Virus genome (UHGV): UHGV-1067530 | Reading direction: 5' to 3' (one strand) | Length of the DNA: 33,600 nt | From: a virus | Part shown: one piece after another, positions 9,998 through 15,145 of the stretch | How positions within the stretch are numbered: the first letter of the stretch is position 1 | How the letters are laid out: each line of letters begins with the position of its first letter | Translations under genes and position numbers: made by a program | Notes under the pieces: model-generated | Database searches by the model: none | What the model was told of the DNA's origin: nothing | What the model saw: the letters and a program-made list of their open reading frames with translations, nothing else

Positions 9998-10074
9998 CTC
10001 TGTTTAGCTCAGCTTGGTAGAGCGTTCCGTTTGGGGCGGTAAGGCCGGAGGTTCAAGTCCTCCAACAGAGACCA
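9998..10074 (+). tRNA. tRNA-Pro (anticodon TGG)
   Basis: Acceptor CTCTGTT/AACAGAG, D-arm GCTC/GAGC, anticodon loop TTTGGGG, T-arm GGAGG-TTCAAGT-CCTCC, encoded CCA. Confidence 0.8.
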
Positions 10075-10081
10075 AATTAAT

Positions 10082-10159
10082 GTTCCAGTAGACAAAATGG
10101 TATAGTCACCACTCTTTCAAAGTGGATATTTGAGGGTTCAAATCCCTTCTGGAACGCCA
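10082..10159 (+). tRNA. tRNA-Glu (anticodon TTC)
   Basis: Acceptor GTTCCAG/CTGGAAC, anticodon stem CCACT/AGTGG, loop CTTTCAA, T-loop TTCAAAT, CCA. Confidence 0.8.
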
Positions 10160-10162
10160 GTT

Positions 10163-10239
10163 TTGACAGAAGACCAATTACAGCAAACTTAATCTTATTC
10201 ATCTGAAGGTAAATCGGACAAAGAAGAGATTTGGTCTGG
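10163..10239 (+). repeat. Inverted-repeat-bounded element, copy 1 (TTGACAGAAGACC-AA-TTACAGCAA ... TTGGTCTGG)
   Basis: 5' box CAGAAGACC + TTACAGCAA, 3' box GGTCTGG; termini AGACCAA/TTGGTCT are complementary. Confidence 0.6.
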
Positions 10240-10251
10240 TCATTAAGAATT

Positions 10252-10327
10252 GCGGGTATAGAGAAAGGGCGTCTCACATGTCTCATTAGCATGGTATCGG
10301 CAGGTTCGACTCCTGCACCCGCCTCCA
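10252..10327 (+). tRNA. tRNA-Met/Ile2-like (anticodon CAT), slightly irregular acceptor/T-stem register
   Basis: Acceptor GCGGGTA, D-arm GAGA/TCTC, anticodon stem CATGT/GCATG, loop CTCATTA, T-arm GCAGG-TTCGACT-CCTGC; 3' strand ACCCGCC pairs with a 1-nt offset. Confidence 0.5.
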
Positions 10328-10329
10328 AA

Positions 10330-10397
10330 TTTACAGAAGACCGTTTACAGCAATATTTATTAAATTTTTAGCGGAAAAATTGAAAGATGTGGTCTGG
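10330..10397 (+). repeat. Inverted-repeat-bounded element, copy 2 (TTTACAGAAGACCGTTTACAGCAA ... GGTCTGG)
   Basis: 5' 27 nt identical to copy 4; internal AT-rich hairpin AATTTTT/AAAAATT. Confidence 0.6.
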
Positions 10398-10410
10398 TAA
10401 TACTAAACAT

Positions 10411-10487
10411 GGTTAGGAAGCACATAAGGTATGTGCGGTCGCCTGTTAAGCGAATGGCACAGGGTTCGAATCCCTGACTAACCGCCA
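10411..10487 (+). tRNA. tRNA-Asn (anticodon GTT)
   Basis: Acceptor GGTTAGG/ACTAACC, D-arm GCAC/GTGC, anticodon loop CTGTTAA, T-arm CAGGG-TTCGAAT-CCCTG, discriminator G, CCA. Confidence 0.75.
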
Positions 10488-10556
10488 AATTTAGGAGAGA
10501 AGCGATTGCTCACCGATTTGTAAGGTGCAAGTCCTTAGCCTGAATAGAAATTAAAT

Positions 10557-10644
10557 GTGTCGTTATCCCGTAGATGGTAGCGGTGGGGACTGTAAATCCC
10601 TTGTCATTGAGACTCGGTAGGTTCGACTCCTACACGGCACACCA
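10557..10644 (+). tRNA. tRNA-Tyr (anticodon GTA), long variable arm
   Basis: Acceptor GTGTCGT/ACGGCAC, anticodon loop CTGTAAA, ~15-nt variable arm, T-arm GTAGG-TTCGACT-CCTAC, CCA. Confidence 0.7.
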
Positions 10645-10649
10645 ACAAA

Positions 10650-10727
10650 GGTTATGTAGTTTAATTTGGTTAAAATACTCCCCTGTCACGGGAGATGATG
10701 AGGGTTCAAATCCCTTCGTAACCGCCA
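10650..10727 (+). tRNA. tRNA-Asp (anticodon GTC)
   Basis: Acceptor GGTTATG/CGTAACC, anticodon stem CTCCC/GGGAG, loop CTGTCAC, T-loop TTCAAAT, CCA. Confidence 0.75.
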
Positions 10728-10788
10728 ATTTTGAGAGGGCTATTTAGCCCCTCCCTTAAAGAGTTCTTACGAGTATTCTTTAAAGGAG

Positions 10789-10862
10789 CAGAAGACCAAA
10801 TACAGCAAGTTACTTAAAATTTCAAGCCAATTTAATTTTGAAAAATTTAAAACTTGGTCTGG
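10789..10862 (+). repeat. Inverted-repeat-bounded element, copy 3 (CAGAAGACC-AAA-TACAGCAA ... TTGGTCTGG)
   Basis: Same terminal boxes; interior is a long AT-rich imperfect hairpin (CAAGTTACTTAAAATTTCAA / TTGAAAAATTTAAAACTTG). Confidence 0.6.
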
Positions 10863-10871
10863 CTCAACAAA

Positions 10872-11006
10872 TTTACAGAAGACCGTTTACAGCAAAACTT
10901 AAACAATCTATTTCTCGGTAAAGAAAAGGAGAAGGTTCGATTCCTTCACTCGGCAGGTGTCGAGTTGGTGTAATGGTAGCACTTAAGATGATAAACAACG
11001 GTCTGG
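10872..11006 (+). repeat. Inverted-repeat-bounded element, copy 4 (TTTACAGAAGACCGTT ... AACGGTCTGG), containing tRNA-like fragments
   Basis: 8-bp terminal complementarity AGACCGTT/AACGGTCT; interior holds a T-arm (GAAGG-TTCGATT-CCTTC) followed by a D-arm-like segment. Confidence 0.6.
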
Positions 11007-11007
11007 T

Positions 11008-11151
11008 AATTATCTTTGTAGATAAGTTATTAAGCTTACCTGTGAGTATGCGACCACAAAGGGTGAAAGGGTAAATTCTAGATTTAAACCCAAAAAGGCA
11101 CATCGCTACAGACCTTAAGCAAGTCTGGGTAGCTTATCTACAAAGATAATT
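11008..11151 (+). repeat. 19-bp perfect inverted repeat (AATTATCTTTGTAGATAAG / CTTATCTACAAAGATAATT) flanking 106 nt
   Basis: Read directly: 11008-11026 is the exact reverse complement of 11133-11151; the interior contains CAGACC...GTCTGG. Confidence 0.7.
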
Positions 11152-11155
11152 TAAT

Positions 11156-11231
11156 GGAAGTGTAGCAGAATGGTGATGCGGCAGACTTTTAATCTGACAG
11201 GCGATGGGTTCGAATCCCTCCACTTCTACCA
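11156..11231 (+). tRNA. tRNA-Lys (anticodon TTT)
   Basis: Acceptor GGAAGTG/CACTTCT (G1-U72 wobble), anticodon loop CTTTTAA, T-loop TTCGAAT, discriminator A, CCA. Confidence 0.7.
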
Positions 11232-11235
11232 ATAT

Positions 11236-11312
11236 GGTTCAGTCGCAGATAAGGTAATGCAAGGGTCTCATAAGCCCTATGAATGTGGGTTCGATTCCCA
11301 TCTGAACCTCCA
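11236..11312 (+). tRNA. tRNA-Met or Ile2 (anticodon CAT)
   Basis: Acceptor GGTTCAG/CTGAACC, anticodon stem AGGGT/GCCCT, loop CTCATAA, T-arm TGGG-TTCGATT-CCCA, CCA. Confidence 0.75.
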
Positions 11313-11314
11313 AT

Positions 11315-11389
11315 TGTGGGTTAGCATAAATGGTAATGCAAACGGCTGATAACCGTTAGAAGAGGGTTCGATACCCTCACCTACAACCA
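11315..11389 (+). tRNA. tRNA-Ile (anticodon GAT)
   Basis: Acceptor TGTGGGT/ACCTACA, D-arm GCA/TGC, anticodon stem AACGG/CCGTT, loop CTGATAA, T-arm GAGGG-TTCGATA-CCCTC, CCA. Confidence 0.75.
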
Positions 11390-11404
11390 ATTTCAATAAA
11401 GTTG

Positions 11405-11433
11405 TTGACATTGAGATGTGACTACTTTATAGT
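11405..11433 (+). promoter_or_regulatory. Putative sigma70-like promoter inside the tRNA array
   Basis: aaagttgTTGACA (11405-11410), 17-nt spacer, TATAGT (11428-11433). Confidence 0.45.
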
Positions 11434-11439
11434 AACTAA

Positions 11440-11726
11440 AATACTTCAGAATATGTATAATTCAAACACCAATACATGAGCGTTAGACGTAACACAATGT
11501 GGGGAAATTTGTTGTACATATTCTGAATAGTTTTCGTTGCGTAGCGTCTATTTTGCAAATTTAAAATAAATGCAAACGACAATGTTTTTCTGGCAGTAGC
11601 TTGATAGGCTAAACACCAGTGAGGTCTTCCAATCCCTCATCAAAGAATTTGGCGTACTAGCCCACGGTATGATTAATAAGGTGGGCATCTTTAAGGGCTT
11701 TCTAAGAGAGTCTTTAAAGATAATTA
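11440..11726 (+). ncRNA. Candidate structured non-coding RNA region (ORF-free, multiple hairpins)
   Basis: No ORF of 60 aa or more; 13-bp perfect inverted repeat TTCAGAATATGTA (11445-11457) / TACATATTCTGAA (11515-11527); hairpins GCCCAC...GTGGGC, TGAGG...CCTCA, TTTGCA...TGCAAA; sits downstream of the 11405 promoter. Confidence 0.35.
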
Positions 11727-11808
11727 CGGGGCGTATCTCAGCGGTCTTCTAAACCGCCGTTAACCGAGTAAGTGGAGTATGCGGGTTCGAGTCCTGCCGC
11801 CTCGACCA
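11727..11808 (+). tRNA. tRNA-like, Arg(TCT)-type anticodon arm, atypical (no canonical D-arm, 23-nt segment before the T-arm)
   Basis: Acceptor CGGGGCG/CGCCTCG, anticodon stem GCGGT/ACCGC with loop CTTCTAA, T-arm GCGGG-TTCGAGT-CCTGC, discriminator A, CCA; the D-arm 3' strand is not identifiable. Confidence 0.45.
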
Positions 11809-11950
11809 ATTAGTTAGCAGATTACTTAGACGACCTAAGCGGGTCTTCCTGTAGGGAGGTGGTCTGTATCTCATGTTTTCCAGAACATGTAAATAATCTG
11901 AGAAGGGGCTTTACAGTGTTGAGATAATACGGTAAGCTTCGAATTATAGT

Positions 11951-12033
11951 ATGGGACGATGTTAAGACTCTAAGGCATGAGCAACGGCTTCCAACACCGT
12001 TTCAAAGGGGTTCAACTCCTCCGTCCCATGCCA
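11951..12033 (+). tRNA. tRNA-like, Trp(CCA)-type anticodon loop, atypical (7 extra nt in the D region)
   Basis: Acceptor ATGGGAC/GTCCCAT perfect, hairpin ACGGC-TTCCAAC-ACCGT, T-arm AGGGG-TTCAACT-CCTCC, discriminator G, CCA; D region is 26 nt. Confidence 0.4.
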
Positions 12034-12046
12034 AAGTCTTATTAGG

Positions 12047-12134
12047 GGTAGGTAGCGGCTAATGGTAGCCAAACTGTCTTGAAAACAGTTGCCACTGTAG
12101 AGATACGGTGAGGGTTCGACTCCTTTACTTACCG
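12047..12134 (+). tRNA. tRNA-Ser (anticodon TGA), long variable arm; CCA not encoded
   Basis: Acceptor GGTAGGT/ACTTACC, anticodon stem ACTGT/ACAGT, loop CTTGAAA, ~20-nt variable arm, T-arm GAGGG-TTCGACT-CCTTT, discriminator G. Confidence 0.7.
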
Positions 12135-12137
12135 CCT

Positions 12138-12391
12138 AATAAGATTTAAAGCCAAGCTTCATTCGGATGTCGCTTTGGTATCCCGCGTGTATTGTCGTAC
12201 ACACTGATAAAACACCTAGTAGGTGTCACGGAGAAGAGATAATATCAAGCTCTCCAAAGGTTCTAGTCACCGGATTAAACAAGACTATGCAAAGACCTTT
12301 TTAGGTCTTTTTAGAGGGCTTCTAAGGTTATTACAGCTTGTTGTGGAACCTTGTTGCTTAGGTTCTTAGAAGTTCTCTAAAAAGATTTAAT
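12138..12391 (+). ncRNA. Candidate structured non-coding region (hairpins, terminator-like stem, long CTTCTAAG/CTTAGAAG hairpin)
   Basis: ORF-free; hairpins GTGTA...TACAC, ACACCTA...TAGGTGT, GGAGA...TCTCC; AAAGACC-TTTTT-AGGTCTTT followed by a T-run (about 12288-12312); inverted repeat CTTCTAAG (12320) / CTTAGAAG (12365). Confidence 0.3.
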
Positions 12392-12469
12392 GGGAGATTG
12401 ACGGTAATTGGTAAACCTACCATCCTTAGAAGTTGGTGTTTGAGGGTTCGAATCCCTTGTCTCCTACCA
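12392..12469 (+). tRNA. tRNA with Leu-type anticodon TAG but short (5-nt) variable loop
   Basis: Acceptor GGGAGAT/GTCTCCT, anticodon stem CCATC/GTTGG (one U-U), loop CTTAGAA, T-arm GAGGG-TTCGAAT-CCCTT, discriminator A, CCA. Confidence 0.55.
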
Positions 12470-12476
12470 AATTAAT

Positions 12477-12552
12477 GCAGGTGTAGCAAAATGGTTATGC
12501 GGCTGACTCTTAATCAGTAAGACGATGGGTTCAATTCCCTCCACCTGTACCA
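12477..12552 (+). tRNA. tRNA-Lys (anticodon CTT)
   Basis: Acceptor GCAGGTG/CACCTGT, anticodon stem GCTGA/TCAGT, loop CTCTTAA, T-loop TTCAATT, discriminator A, CCA; close paralog of the 11156 tRNA. Confidence 0.7.
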
Positions 12553-12558
12553 GACATT

Positions 12559-12634
12559 TGGGTCATAGTTTATATGGTTAAAATTCGAGTTTTGCAAACT
12601 TGGGAACTGAGTTCAATTCTCAGTGACTCCACCA
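12559..12634 (+). tRNA. tRNA-Ala (anticodon TGC)
   Basis: G3-U70 wobble present in the acceptor (TGGGTCA/TGACTCC), anticodon stem CGAGT/ACTTG, loop TTTGCAA, T-arm CTGAG-TTCAATT-CTCAG, discriminator A, CCA; 1-72 is unpaired (T/C). Confidence 0.7.
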
Positions 12635-12640
12635 ATTAGT

Positions 12641-12715
12641 GCATCCATAGTTTAAACGGGAAAATTACAGTCTTCCAAACTGAGGTTGAGGGTTCGATTC
12701 CCTCTGGATGCTCCA
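12641..12715 (+). tRNA. tRNA-Gly (anticodon TCC)
   Basis: Acceptor GCATCCA/TGGATGC perfect, anticodon loop CTTCCAA, T-arm GAGGG-TTCGATT-CCCTC, CCA. Confidence 0.75.
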
Positions 12716-12721
12716 AACAAT

Positions 12722-12798
12722 GCTGCTTTCGTATAATTGGCTATTACACATCCCTTGTAAGGATGGAAATGCAGGTTCGAGTCCTGTGAGCAGCACCA
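12722..12798 (+). tRNA. tRNA-Thr (anticodon TGT)
   Basis: Acceptor GCTGCTT/GAGCAGC, anticodon stem CATCC/GGATG, loop CTTGTAA, T-arm GCAGG-TTCGAGT-CCTGT, discriminator A, CCA. Confidence 0.8.
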
Positions 12799-12799
12799 A

Positions 12800-12893
12800 T
12801 TCAGAGGTCAAGTGAAAGACCGCTGGTGTCAACTGAAGACCGTAACAAATTCCACGGAGTTGAGTTAGCGGCACAACTTCAGACCTCTTTCAC
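12800..12893 (+). repeat. Repeat/palindrome-rich spacer related to the CAGAAGACC element family
   Basis: CTGAAGACCGTAACA (12836-) resembles the 5' box; AGAGGTC...GACCTCT and CTGAAG...CTTCAG inverted repeats. Confidence 0.4.
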
Positions 12894-12968
12894 ACTCGCT
12901 TAGTTTATATGGTAAAACATCACCCTTACAAGATGAAGAAAAAGGTTCAAGTCCTTTAGTGAGTACCA
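12894..12968 (+). tRNA. tRNA-Val (anticodon TAC)
   Basis: Acceptor ACTCGCT/AGTGAGT, D-stem GTTT, anticodon loop CTTACAA, T-arm AAAGG-TTCAAGT-CCTTT, discriminator A, CCA. Confidence 0.65.
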
Positions 12969-12969
12969 T

Positions 12970-13047
12970 GTTCCAGTATCCCAATTGGCAGAGGATGCAA
13001 GCTCAAACCTTGTATTAGTGACGGTTCGAATCCGTCTTGGAACACCA
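12970..13047 (+). tRNA. tRNA with Leu-type anticodon CAA but short (6-nt) variable loop
   Basis: Acceptor GTTCCAG/TTGGAAC, D-loop AATTGGCAGAG, anticodon stem TGCAAG/CTTGTA with loop CTCAAAC, T-arm GACGG-TTCGAAT-CCGTC, discriminator A, CCA. Confidence 0.55.
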
Positions 13048-13065
13048 ATTTAAAGAGGCTATTTA

Positions 13066-13623
13066 ATGAGATATTTGAAGTATGCTTCATGGATTTTCTT
13101 AGCTTTACTAGACCCAATTGCAGCAATCCTAGCAGTTATCTTAGCACCTTTCGTAGTTCCATTCTACAGTGAGAAGAAAGGACATCTACCTTTTGGATTC
13201 AGATGGATGGAGACCTATGACAACCCGATTGATGGTGACGAAGGTCACGTTAAAAGATGGGCTAAGATTAGAAAGATTGGTAAGCTGGGTGTCTACATGC
13301 AGAGAGTTGGGTGGCTCTGGAGAAACAAAGCTTATAACTTCTCTTACCATGTATTAGGAAGAGATGTAAAAGATGTTACTAAGTGGAGAGGTAATATCAA
13401 CGTAAGTTCTGACCCTGAAGATAATCAGACTGGTTATCTCCTAATGTGGAACAACAATGCTTGGGGATTATTCGCTTTTATTCCGTCAATTAAAGTCTTT
13501 GGTAAACAGTTTTACTGGAGAATTTATGTTGGATGGAAACTAAAAAGTGTTGTCCCAGAAGAAAGAGCATTCTCAAGGGAAAGAGTTATGTTGGCATTCT
13601 TTATTCATCCACTGAGAAAGTAA
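13066..13623 (+). CDS. hypothetical membrane protein (185 aa) embedded in the tRNA array
   Basis: ORF with RBS aaagagg upstream; N-terminal hydrophobic helix WIFLALLDPIAAILAVILAPFVVPF; Trp/Arg-rich remainder. Confidence 0.6.
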   Translation: MRYLKYASWIFLALLDPIAAILAVILAPFVVPFYSEKKGHLPFGFRWMETYDNPIDGDEGHVKRWAKIRKIGKLGVYMQRVGWLWRNKAYNFSYHVLGRDVKDVTKWRGNINVSSDPEDNQTGYLLMWNNNAWGLFAFIPSIKVFGKQFYWRIYVGWKLKSVVPEERAFSRERVMLAFFIHPLRK

Positions 13624-13631
13624 AGATTTAA

Positions 13632-13707
13632 AGGGGATTAGTTTACAAGGTTAAAACCTCGGTCTTTGAAATCGAAGAAGTTGGTTCAATTCCAACATCC
13701 CCCGCCA
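13632..13707 (+). tRNA. tRNA-Gln (anticodon TTG)
   Basis: Acceptor AGGGGAT/ATCCCCC with unpaired 1-72, discriminator G, anticodon stem TCGGT/ATCGA, loop CTTTGAA, T-arm GTTGG-TTCAATT-CCAAC, CCA. Confidence 0.7.
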
Positions 13708-13709
13708 AT

Positions 13710-13788
13710 GCTCCATTACTCCAATTGGCAGAGAGGCCAGACTTAAAATCTGTGTTATGTATCGGTTCGAATCCGATATGGAGTACCA
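13710..13788 (+). tRNA. tRNA with Leu-type anticodon TAA but short (7-nt) variable loop
   Basis: Acceptor GCTCCAT/ATGGAGT, D-loop AATTGGCAGAG, anticodon stem CCAGA/TCTGT, loop CTTAAAA, T-arm ATCGG-TTCGAAT-CCGAT, discriminator A, CCA. Confidence 0.55.
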
Positions 13789-13793
13789 ATTTT

Positions 13794-13869
13794 AGCGGTA
13801 TAGCATAACTGGCAATGCAGCAGTCTCTGAAGCTGTCCTATTAAGGTTCAAATCCTTATGCCGCTGCCA
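13794..13869 (+). tRNA. tRNA-Gln (anticodon CTG)
   Basis: Acceptor AGCGGTA/TGCCGCT, D-arm GCAT/ATGC, anticodon loop CTCTGAA, T-arm TAAGG-TTCAAAT-CCTTA, discriminator G, CCA. Confidence 0.7.
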
Positions 13870-13900
13870 CTTCTAAGGGTTCTTACGAGAGTCCTTAAAT

Positions 13901-13976
13901 GTGGCCTTATCATAAACGGTAATGACCCATGCTGTGAACATGGTCTATACGGGTTCAAATCCCGTAGGTCACCCCA
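13901..13976 (+). tRNA. tRNA-His (anticodon GTG)
   Basis: Acceptor GTGGCCT/AGGTCAC, D-arm TCAT/ATGA, anticodon stem CCATG/CATGG, loop CTGTGAA, T-arm ACGGG-TTCAAAT-CCCGT, discriminator C, CCA; position -1 is T, not G. Confidence 0.8.
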
Positions 13977-13981
13977 ATTTA

Positions 13982-14058
13982 TAGTCCAAGTAGCTTATAT
14001 GGTTAAAGCGCGTGTCTGAAAAACATGAGAAGAGGGTTCAAATCCCACTGGACTACCA
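13982..14058 (+). tRNA. tRNA-Phe (anticodon GAA), acceptor register slightly irregular
   Basis: D-arm GCTT/AAGC, anticodon stem CGTGT/ACATG, loop CTGAAAA, T-loop TTCAAAT; acceptor TAGTCCA/TGGACTA pairs perfectly but leaves a 4-nt linker before the D-stem. Confidence 0.6.
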
Positions 14059-14074
14059 ATTTCAAAGGTGCTTA

Positions 14075-14809
14075 ATGAAAGAGATGACAGGACAAGGTAA
14101 GGAGATTTTTAATCTCTTAAAAACCGGTAAAGGGTTTTCTAACCCACTTATTACTGGTGCAGCAGTTCTCGGTGGAACCGTAGCTGCCTCTACATCACTT
14201 GTAAGCTCTATTAGCTCTGTAACAGACCCGACAATGAATGAGAAACTTGTTGCTGCTGGACTTACAACAGTCCTTCTAAACAGCTTTACAACAAGCCTGA
14301 CAAGCACTACAGCAACTACTAAGACCCTAACAGACTATGGTCAAAAGTCTATTGATGAGTTTTCATCACGTATGCAGGTAGCAAAGGGGTATTCCAATGT
14401 TATGGGTGCAGCAGGAGAACAAGTTGGTTGTACACCATTCAGTGGTATTATGGGTGTTGCTACAGAGTATGGTCAAAAAGCTATTGACATGATTAACAGC
14501 ACACTAGACAGTGTTAACGGTGTGTTAAGTGACTTACAAGACGCTATTGATAAGGGTCTTGATACTGTTTCTGATTTAGCTAATCAAGCTGTTAGCAAGA
14601 TTAATGAAGGTATCTCAAAGATTACAGCTTATGCAGATGAAGTTGTGCAGATGATTGAAGAAGAAGCTGCCCTTATTGCAGAGTACCTTAAAACGAATAT
14701 CAATGGGTTCTTAGCAGGTATCTTACCAGACTGGTTTGATGATGCTCGCAAAACTGGTGTAATCGACACTATTGCAACACCAGAAATGAAGAACGCATTA
14801 CAGAAATAA
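14075..14809 (+). CDS. hypothetical Ser/Thr-rich protein (244 aa)
   Basis: The ORF track starts at 14012 inside tRNA-Phe; first ATG with an upstream aaagg RBS is 14075 (MKEMTGQ...); S/T-rich N-half, helical C-half. Confidence 0.55.
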   Translation: MKEMTGQGKEIFNLLKTGKGFSNPLITGAAVLGGTVAASTSLVSSISSVTDPTMNEKLVAAGLTTVLLNSFTTSLTSTTATTKTLTDYGQKSIDEFSSRMQVAKGYSNVMGAAGEQVGCTPFSGIMGVATEYGQKAIDMINSTLDSVNGVLSDLQDAIDKGLDTVSDLANQAVSKINEGISKITAYADEVVQMIEEEAALIAEYLKTNINGFLAGILPDWFDDARKTGVIDTIATPEMKNALQK

Positions 14810-14810
14810 T

Positions 14811-14903
14811 GGAAGATTAACCCTAAAAGGTAAGGGAGCAGTTTGCTAAACTGCCAGTAGCTGAGAAATCGGTGTACCAGTTCAAGTCTGGTATCTTCCT
14901 CCA
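14811..14903 (+). tRNA. tRNA-Ser (anticodon GCT), long variable arm
   Basis: Acceptor GGAAGAT/ATCTTCC perfect, D-stem CCC/GGG, anticodon stem GCAGT/ACTGC, loop TTGCTAA, ~20-nt variable arm, T-arm ACCAG-TTCAAGT-CTGGT, CCA. Confidence 0.8.
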
Positions 14904-14907
14904 ATCT

Positions 14908-14983
14908 GAATCCGTGACAGAAATGGATATGTGCCTGTCTGCAAAACAGGTTTATAAGGGTTCAAGTCCCTTCGGATTCTCCA
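14908..14983 (+). tRNA. tRNA-Cys (anticodon GCA)
   Basis: Acceptor GAATCCG/CGGATTC perfect, anticodon stem CCTGT/ACAGG, loop CTGCAAA, T-arm AAGGG-TTCAAGT-CCCTT, discriminator T, CCA. Confidence 0.8.
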
Positions 14984-15020
14984 AGTTATTTTACTCTCTC
15001 TCAATTAAAATAATAATAAT

Positions 15021-15080
15021 GCCCTGCTATAAGTATTCTTCCTTTCGCTACCGAAGAGTATTTTTAGACAGGGCTTTTTT
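15021..15080 (+). terminator. Putative intrinsic terminator closing the tRNA array
   Basis: Outer stem GCCCTG (15021-15026) / CAGGGC (15069-15074) enclosing an inner hairpin, followed by TTTTTT. Confidence 0.45.
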
Positions 15081-15145
15081 ACAGAGTTATACTTTATAGG
15101 AAGACTTATACAGTATGTCTCTGACGTACATTGTGGTTTCTCCTT

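Follow-up and report, generated by a model that had tools for sequence, protein, structure and literature searches.

Between positions 12392 and 13788 of the viral genome UHGV-1067530 (33,600 nt; this whole analysed stretch is called the window hereafter) lie three transfer RNA (tRNA) genes with leucine anticodons, UAG, CAA and UAA, all of which lack the long variable arm typical of tRNA-Leu. They belong to an array of 24 tRNA genes located by ARAGORN at 9998-14983, all on the + strand. The region around them (12000-14100) matches Salmonella phage Mushroom (KP143762, genus Felixounavirus) at 100% identity and Felix O1 at 98.8%, the + strand of the window corresponding to the - strand of KP143762. 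Since this region is conserved in 258 phage records, the match to tRNA-Leu cannot be attributed to chance. As argued below, the three genes are real and very probably encode functional leucine tRNAs of the type I kind, that is, tRNAs carrying a Leu anticodon in the canonical position and a short variable loop of ~5 nt, an arrangement found in all three.

All three genes were identified by ARAGORN and scored above the gathering score of the Rfam tRNA family RF00005 (29 bits; Table 1). Each has a 7-bp acceptor stem, the T loop TTCGAAT, and an adenosine at the discriminator position (A73) followed by an encoded CCA. The 7-nt anticodon loops read CTTAGAA (UAG), CTCAAAC (CAA) and CTTAAAA (UAA). With the anticodon stem taken as 5 bp, the variable regions measure 5, 6 and 7 nt, respectively, and none of them is of the class II form, in which a variable arm of more than 10 nt folds into a stem-loop. 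The two programs therefore confirmed the initial annotation, made from the sequence alone, which had described three Leu-anticodon tRNAs with these loops, A73 and variable regions of 5-7 nt. Its statement that the Ser and Tyr tRNAs of the same array do have long arms also held, the variable region being 15 nt in tRNA-Tyr and 18-21 nt in the two tRNA-Ser, as did the premise that bacterial and T4 tRNA-Leu are long-armed (85-87 nt for the E. coli genes and 87 nt for the T4 gene). Two of the three acceptor stems, those of the UAG and UAA tRNAs, open with a G1.U72 wobble. Across viral contigs, the frequency of this pair is 42% among short and 25% among long Leu tRNAs, compared with 11% among non-Leu tRNAs. 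In addition, the 5′ acceptor strand GTTCCAG is common to tRNA-Leu(CAA) and tRNA-Glu(UUC), one of which may have been derived from the other by duplication.

Table 1. Location of the three short tRNA-Leu genes, of the long-armed comparator tRNAs and of other features of the array (window coordinates; lengths of the tRNA-Leu genes include the encoded CCA)
Feature	Position	Strand	Length	Anticodon	Variable region	D region	A73	RF00005 score	Remark
tRNA-Leu(UAG)	12392-12469	+	78 nt	12427-12429	TGTTT (5 nt), 12437-12441	TGACGGTAATTGGTAAACCTA, 12399-12419	12466	40.0 bits	ARAGORN
tRNA-Leu(CAA)	12970-13047	+	78 nt	13004-13006	ATTAGT (6 nt), 13014-13019	TATCCCAATTGGCAGAGGAT, 12977-12996	13044	44.0 bits	ARAGORN
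tRNA-Leu(UAA)	13710-13788	+	79 nt	13744-13746	GTTATGT (7 nt), 13754-13760	TACTCCAATTGGCAGAGAGG, 13717-13736	13785	47.5 bits	ARAGORN
tRNA-Tyr(GUA), comparator	10557-10644	+	88 nt						Long variable arm kept (ARAGORN structure)
tRNA-Ser(UGA), comparator	12047-12136	+	90 nt						Long variable arm kept (ARAGORN structure)
tRNA-Ser(GCU), comparator	14811-14903	+	93 nt						Long variable arm kept (ARAGORN structure)
tRNA-Glu(UUC)	10082-10159	+							Acceptor strand shared with tRNA-Leu(CAA)
tRNA-like element	11727-11808	+							Not called by ARAGORN
Weak tRNA-like element	11953-12028	+							Probably a relic
Imperfect hairpin	12303-12390	+							~24 bp
'Holin'-annotated open reading frame	13066-13623	+	185 aa						Between tRNA-Leu(CAA) and tRNA-Gln(UUG)
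CPT_Mushroom85 (KP143762 annotation)	14872-15099		75 aa						Overlaps tRNA-Ser(GCU) and tRNA-Cys

The elements by which E. coli leucyl-tRNA synthetase (LeuRS) identifies its substrates are A73, A14 (with U8), the A15:U48 Levitt pair, G18G19 with U55/C56, U54:A58 and A20a; the anticodon and the long arm are both dispensable (PMC9976931; PMC6614811). This set is complete in all three Leu tRNAs and in none of the 21 other tRNAs of the window, the nearest of which, Thr(UGU), differs at position 20a. Furthermore, the D arms of the CAA and UAA tRNAs have exactly the architecture of E. coli tRNA-Leu (a 3-bp stem, a 13.22 mismatch, which is C13.A22 in the CAA tRNA, and the loop AAUUGGCAG), together with U48 and A73. 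The Leu-type core as defined here includes four bases from position 14 to G18. The UAG tRNA is of the U8-G9/G13.A22 type, as in E. coli, save for one inserted U and a C.C mismatch. Hallmarks of other identities were not found in the three tRNAs: there is no G3:U70 pair as in tRNA-Ala (the 3:70 pairs are G-C in the UAG tRNA and U-A in both the CAA and UAA tRNAs), no long arm with G73 as in tRNA-Ser (residue 73 being A), and no long arm with U35 as in tRNA-Tyr (position 35 being A).

The same D arms are associated with leucine anticodons well beyond the window. A search of IMG/VR for the motif CCAATTGGCAGAG, which is the D arm of the CAA and UAA tRNAs, followed by GGTTCGA at a spacing of 20-50 nt, matched at least 120 loci. 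Among the matches listed, 118 of the 123 viral tRNAs with the motif carry Leu anticodons, with all six Leu anticodons represented, and all 123 are 74-79 nt long. The U8-G9 pattern, which fits the UAG tRNA, was present in 48 of 1872 unique tRNAs, and 46 of these have Leu anticodons (32 long-armed and 14 short). Leucine identity is the best explanation for D arms that are tied in this way to the anticodons of two codon boxes. In a viral sample chosen without reference to Leu (it was anchored on a T-arm sequence that none of the Leu tRNAs of the window uses), the combination of A73, A14A15 and U48 was found in 19 of 19 short Leu tRNAs, and the full set in 6 of 429 non-Leu class I tRNAs.

Published isotype scores point in the same direction. 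For Shigella phage Sf14 (Mooglevirus), the tRNAscan-SE 2.0 isotype scores were printed in a 2025 paper, and Leu was the top isotype both for Leu(CAA), with 49.1 versus 36.1 for the next isotype, and for Leu(UAA), with 60.2 versus 54.2 (PMC12482277). The tRNA-Leu(CAA) of the window is identical to that of Sf14 (78/78 positions) and its tRNA-Leu(UAA) is identical at 78 of 79 positions, whereas the Leu(UAG) gene of Sf14 is a different short tRNA, with 45 of 79 aligned positions identical to the UAG tRNA of the window. Scoring with isotype-specific models, a check proposed in the initial annotation, thus had a mixed outcome: Leu ranks first in the published scores of one identical tRNA and of another that is one nucleotide off, but no clean separation of Leu was obtained with covariance models of our own, which are considered below.

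The cloverleaf fold itself is decisively settled by comparative folding. RNAalifold applied to 13 relatives of the UAG tRNA gave the canonical cloverleaf with the anticodon in its usual place and with compensatory changes at 17 of 20 pairs, and applied to 16 relatives of the CAA and UAA tRNAs it gave the canonical cloverleaf with compensatory changes at 18 of 21 pairs. No alternative fold that would move the anticodon emerged from either set. Among 180 non-redundant viral short Leu tRNAs, which were found by a program that itself requires pairing, 97% of stem positions are paired as against 59.8% when the 3′ partners are shuffled, and 3-6 pair types occur at nearly every stem position.

We consider it highly probable that the three genes encode functional elongator tRNAs of type I that are charged with leucine by the LeuRS of the host. 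That is, a Salmonella/E. coli-type LeuRS would charge the three short tRNAs, in which the long variable arm has presumably been replaced by a loop of 5-7 nt while the parts recognized by LeuRS are kept: A73, U8:A14, A15:U48, a D loop of the Leu type with G18G19 and A20a, and a T loop of standard form. The arm would be dispensable in tRNA-Leu because LeuRS reads neither the anticodon nor the arm, and indispensable in tRNA-Ser because seryl-tRNA synthetase (SerRS) needs it. Bacterial tyrosyl-tRNA synthetase also binds the variable arm, and bacterial tRNA-Tyr, like tRNA-Ser, would be unable to drop it. For SerRS, the variable arm has been described as the main identity element (PMC7609411), and an engineered arm-less E. 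coli tRNA-Leu is still leucylated (PMC9976931). Arm retention in the Leu-blind viral sample matches this use of the arm by the synthetases: long arms are kept in 33 of 34 Ser and 16 of 17 Tyr tRNAs, and 19 of the 52 tRNAs with Leu anticodons are no longer than 80 nt.

As for the charging enzyme, when E. coli LeuRS was compared by tblastn with 50,697 phage records, 61 of them matched, with no Felix O1-like or T5-like phage among the full-length matches listed. Salmonella and Escherichia phages account for four of the 61, and nearly all of the 258 Felix O1-like records are without a match. As this search revealed no LeuRS homologue in Felix O1-like phages, a phage-encoded LeuRS was rejected as the charging enzyme, and it is the host enzyme that would have to charge their Leu tRNAs.

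The codons that the three tRNAs would read, UUA/UUG and CUN, are probably used far more by the AT-rich phage than by its host. In 55 coding sequences of the window, leucine is encoded by UUA (30%), CUU (27%), CUG (13%), CUA (11.5%), UUG (11%) and CUC (6.6%). In enterobacterial hosts, CUG makes up about half of the Leu codons. The Felix O1 genome paper lists Leu(UUA) among the tRNAs likely to aid translation (PMC3185647). An attempt to read the meaning of the Leu codons through solved homologues was abandoned, as the endolysin match was a near-identical Felix O1-type enzyme and the terminase had no match in the PDB.

Short tRNA-Leu genes were found in several other groups of phages when relatives were compared, as the initial annotation had proposed: in Erwinia phage phiEa104 (Kolesnikvirus; CAA, AAG and UAA, 77-78 nt), in Shigella phage Sf14 (UAG, CAA and UAA, 77-79 nt), in the Seunavirus phages 4MG and EspYZU15 (UAA, 78 nt, and UAG, 77 nt), and in BF23 and other T5-like phages (UAG, 77 nt). 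With the 77-nt tRNA-Leu of BF23 and similar T5-like phages, the UAG tRNA of the window shares 83-85% identity, and it falls into one group with the short Leu tRNAs found in T5-like phages and in Seunavirus. Between the tRNA-Ala and tRNA-Ser genes, T5 has an unrelated 85-nt class II Leu(UAG) and BF23 the 77-nt short tRNA; among T5-like phages, the T5 type is present in 54 records of the phage collection and the BF23 type in 164, both on the same hosts. According to GenBank notes, the Leu(UAG) tRNAs of T5 and BF23 can both be converted to amber suppressors (CUA anticodon) in E. coli, that of BF23 being an 'effective' one, which shows that translation in this host makes use of them. Leu tRNAs of both lengths stand together in 28 viral arrays, and their anticodons do not overlap in 25 of these; in one array, five long tRNAs and one short tRNA cover all six Leu anticodons.

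The motif CCAATTGGCAGAG with short spacing also matched at least 120 bacterial loci in GTDB, mostly lone genes in Actinomycetota, and 110 of the 120 bacterial motif tRNAs among the matches listed have Leu anticodons. Lone chromosomal short tRNA-Leu genes (74-78 nt, mostly UAA) were observed in Nocardia, Gordonia, Mycobacterium, Rhodococcus, Arthrobacter and other Actinomycetota, as well as in some Planctomycetota and Cyanobacteria. The occurrence in Actinomycetota agrees with the type I tRNA-Leu(CAA) of Streptomyces coelicolor, which has been characterized biochemically (PMC6614811), but bacterial short tRNA-Leu is far broader than the single Streptomyces case studied so far. The initial annotation had left a choice between class I-like Leu tRNAs in this phage and tRNAs that are not Leu acceptors. 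The former is favoured by the fold, the isotype scores and the identity set, but the type is not peculiar to this phage, being common in phages and in Actinomycetota.

Several observations weigh against functional leucine tRNAs served by the host LeuRS. In vitro, the type I tRNA-Leu(CAA) of Streptomyces was not charged by E. coli LeuRS, an enzyme described as charging type II only (PMC6614811). The Streptomyces tRNA has C48 and hence no A15:U48, whereas the phage tRNAs do have this pair, whose presence could plausibly account for a difference in charging. The published isotype scores cover the CAA and UAA tRNAs and not the UAG tRNA of the window, and the BF23 record does not say which amino acid its suppressor inserts. 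Two covariance models were built with the anticodon masked, one (R1) from the arm-trimmed body of class II tRNA-Leu and the other (R2) from 18 independent short viral Leu tRNAs; R1 ranked the three Leu tRNAs second to fourth of 24, with Cys first, and R2 ranked them first, third and fifth of 24, with Glu second. With Cys ahead of the Leu tRNAs in one and Glu among them in the other, both models were too blunt and were rejected as isotype tests. Moreover, single-sequence minimum free energy folding produced a cloverleaf for the CAA tRNA only (z-scores of -0.3, -1.8 and -1.6); being uninformative for AT-rich unmodified tRNAs, it was dropped for comparative folding. Finally, of the nine tRNAs in their stretch, none of the other six scores as low in Rfam as these three, and the UAG tRNA combines an irregular D arm (the extra U, which precedes A14, and the C.C mismatch) with a U.U mismatch of the anticodon stem. 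The low scores and these mismatches, together with the two tRNA-like relics located nearby (Table 1), could point to decaying or non-functional tRNAs that gene finders still recognize. Such decay is barely credible, however, for genes that are conserved at 95-100% identity across hundreds of phages, one of which (CAA) is identical in a different genus, which retain both their invariant tertiary positions and the encoded CCA, and in which compensatory changes maintain all four stems across the family. It is also very improbable that the tRNAs are charged by a synthetase other than LeuRS, or ambiguously, and insert an amino acid other than leucine at UUR/CUN codons as missense or recoding tRNAs. 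Such charging could be suggested by the absence of the hallmark arm of tRNA-Leu, by the failure of E. coli LeuRS on one natural type I tRNA-Leu, by the place of Cys or Glu as high as the Leu tRNAs in our masked models, and by the scores of Sf14 Leu(UAG), a different sequence, for which Ile2 (65.7) and Lys (63.4) come near Leu (67.4). Yet most other synthetases require anticodon bases of their own, which are absent here, and the features needed by alanyl-tRNA synthetase (G3:U70) and SerRS (long arm or G73) are missing as well. Non-leucine charging would hardly explain why a D arm of the Leu type accompanies all six Leu anticodons in two codon boxes, or why short and long Leu tRNAs of one array fill each other's gaps in the set of anticodons. 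Furthermore, the codons concerned make up ~53% of the Leu codons of the phage, so that miscoding would harm the proteome, and Felix O1 virion proteins have been identified by mass spectrometry with standard translation (PMC3185647).

A different question is whether leucine tRNAs of this kind have lost the arm adaptively, in order to escape a factor of the host or of a rival phage that recognizes class II tRNAs. The evaded factor might be a nuclease or a toxin, or else a pathway of modification or decay, and decoding of Leu codons would continue during infection. The frequency of short Leu tRNAs in viruses (19 of 52 in the Leu-blind sample) and their excess over long ones in T5-like phages (164 to 54) are in line with such a role, as are the reported evasion of anticodon nucleases by phage tRNAs through loop changes (PMC10264068) and the anticodon loop of the UAG tRNA, which differs from that of the host at three positions, including A37 for G37. 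However, no factor is known to target tRNA-Leu via the arm, many phages keep the long form or mix both, and the short type is an ordinary chromosomal gene in many Actinomycetota, for which no conflict with phages is needed. We therefore regard adaptive escape as improbable. The broader proposal that arm-less tRNA-Leu is a common, selected phage design, efficiently charged by enterobacterial LeuRS and advantageous through the loss of the arm (for example by escaping class II-directed host factors), seems only slightly less unlikely; if true, efficient charging by the enterobacterial enzyme would contradict the view that E. coli LeuRS charges only type II tRNAs.

Other features of the array were noted in passing. 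The annotation of KP143762, with the tRNA genes on the opposite strand, lists 22 of them versus 24 found by ARAGORN, labels the Tyr and His tRNAs 'tRNA-Pseudo', and places the coding sequence CPT_Mushroom85 over tRNA-Ser(GCU) and tRNA-Cys, both of which are unannotated there. The discriminator of tRNA-Ser(GCU) is U73; the other tRNA-Ser of the array has G73, the residue read by SerRS. The tRNA-like element starting at 11727 combines an acceptor stem of 7 bp and A73-CCA with a normal T arm; 7 nt stand in place of the D arm, and the variable region measures 23 nt. Its anticodon is UCU, and its anticodon stem-loop is nearly that of the tRNA-Arg(UCU) which Sf14 carries at the syntenic position. 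With our tRNA-Leu models the element reaches 23-26 bits, and with the tRNA-like portion of the transfer-messenger RNA model 22 bits; it may represent either a degenerate tRNA-Arg or a tRNA-like RNA of an unusual kind. The weak element starting at 11953 (17-20 bits) has acceptor and T arms and an 'anticodon' loop of 9 nt. The imperfect hairpin (AGGTCTTTTTAGAGGGCTTCTAAG ... CTTAGAAGTTCTCTAAAAAGATTT) ends two bases 5′ of tRNA-Leu(UAG) and may be a processing or termination signal; it also produced a spurious microRNA match. Lastly, a stretch of 210-260 bp wholly inside the 'holin' open reading frame showed ~67-72% identity, in distant-mode DNA searches, to 'hypothetical protein' genes of many T4-like Escherichia, Klebsiella, Enterobacter and Cronobacter phages.

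Type I tRNA-Leu is already known, and its occurrence in phages is wider than the literature suggests. A 2023 review describes tRNA-Leu as long-armed everywhere except in animal mitochondria (PMC9976931), and the Streptomyces exception has been presented as rare (PMC6614811). The Felix O1, Sf14, BF23 and T5-tRNA papers list these tRNAs without mention of the variable arm, and we found no paper noting its absence from phage tRNA-Leu, although older T5/BF23 tRNA papers lay outside the search and prior notice is possible. The phage genes suggest that a short-arm tRNA-Leu works in E. coli and Salmonella cells, and that this form may make up about one third of virus-encoded tRNA-Leu genes. They could thereby provide a natural test of what LeuRS needs from its tRNA, and short tRNA-Leu could serve as compact orthogonal or suppressor scaffolds. 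They are also relevant to annotation, because isotype calls of phage tRNAs are often flagged as odd.

Among known systems, the type I tRNA-Leu(CAA) of Streptomyces coelicolor (Fan et al. 2019, PMC6614811) resembles the phage tRNAs in its Leu anticodon, its 5-nt variable loop and its A73. In that organism a single LeuRS leucylates both type I and class II tRNA-Leu (PMC6614811), and the D-arm motif with short spacing is common in Actinomycetota, as seen in the GTDB scan. It differs in that its tRNA has C48, its LeuRS ignores A73 and E. coli LeuRS is inactive on it, whereas the tRNAs of the window have A15:U48, two of them have loops of 6-7 nt, and their enterobacterial host has class II tRNA-Leu only. 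The closest counterpart of the UAG tRNA, tRNAL1 (Leu, UAG) of BF23 and most T5-like phages, shares with it, in addition to the short loop and the identity given above, the U.U mismatch of the anticodon stem and the loop CUUAGAA. The BF23 tRNA has a regular D arm (AUG/CAU stem, G13.A22), in contrast to the extra U and C.C mismatch of the window copy.

The class II tRNA-Leu of E. coli (leuW, leuX, leuZ, leuQPV and leuU) and T4 have in common with the phage tRNAs A73, U8, A14 and A15:U48, a 3-bp D stem with a 13.22 mismatch, the D loop AAUUGG(U/C)AG with A20a, the standard T loop and the same anticodons. They differ by their length of 85-87 nt and their variable arm of 12-17 nt; moreover, the phage CAA and UAA tRNAs have A9 and C13 instead of G9 and G/A13, and position 37 of the phage UAG tRNA is A, as against G in the host. 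Animal mitochondrial tRNA-Leu are degenerate and served by a dedicated mitochondrial LeuRS, whereas in the phage tRNAs the D and T loops are complete and canonical, and the enzyme would be the bacterial cytoplasmic LeuRS. Finally, the engineered arm-less E. coli tRNA-Leu (PMC9976931) demonstrate that E. coli LeuRS needs A73 and the D/T-loop tertiary core and not the arm, which is also what we propose for the phage tRNAs. Those are laboratory constructs, however, whereas the tRNAs of the window are natural genes kept by selection.

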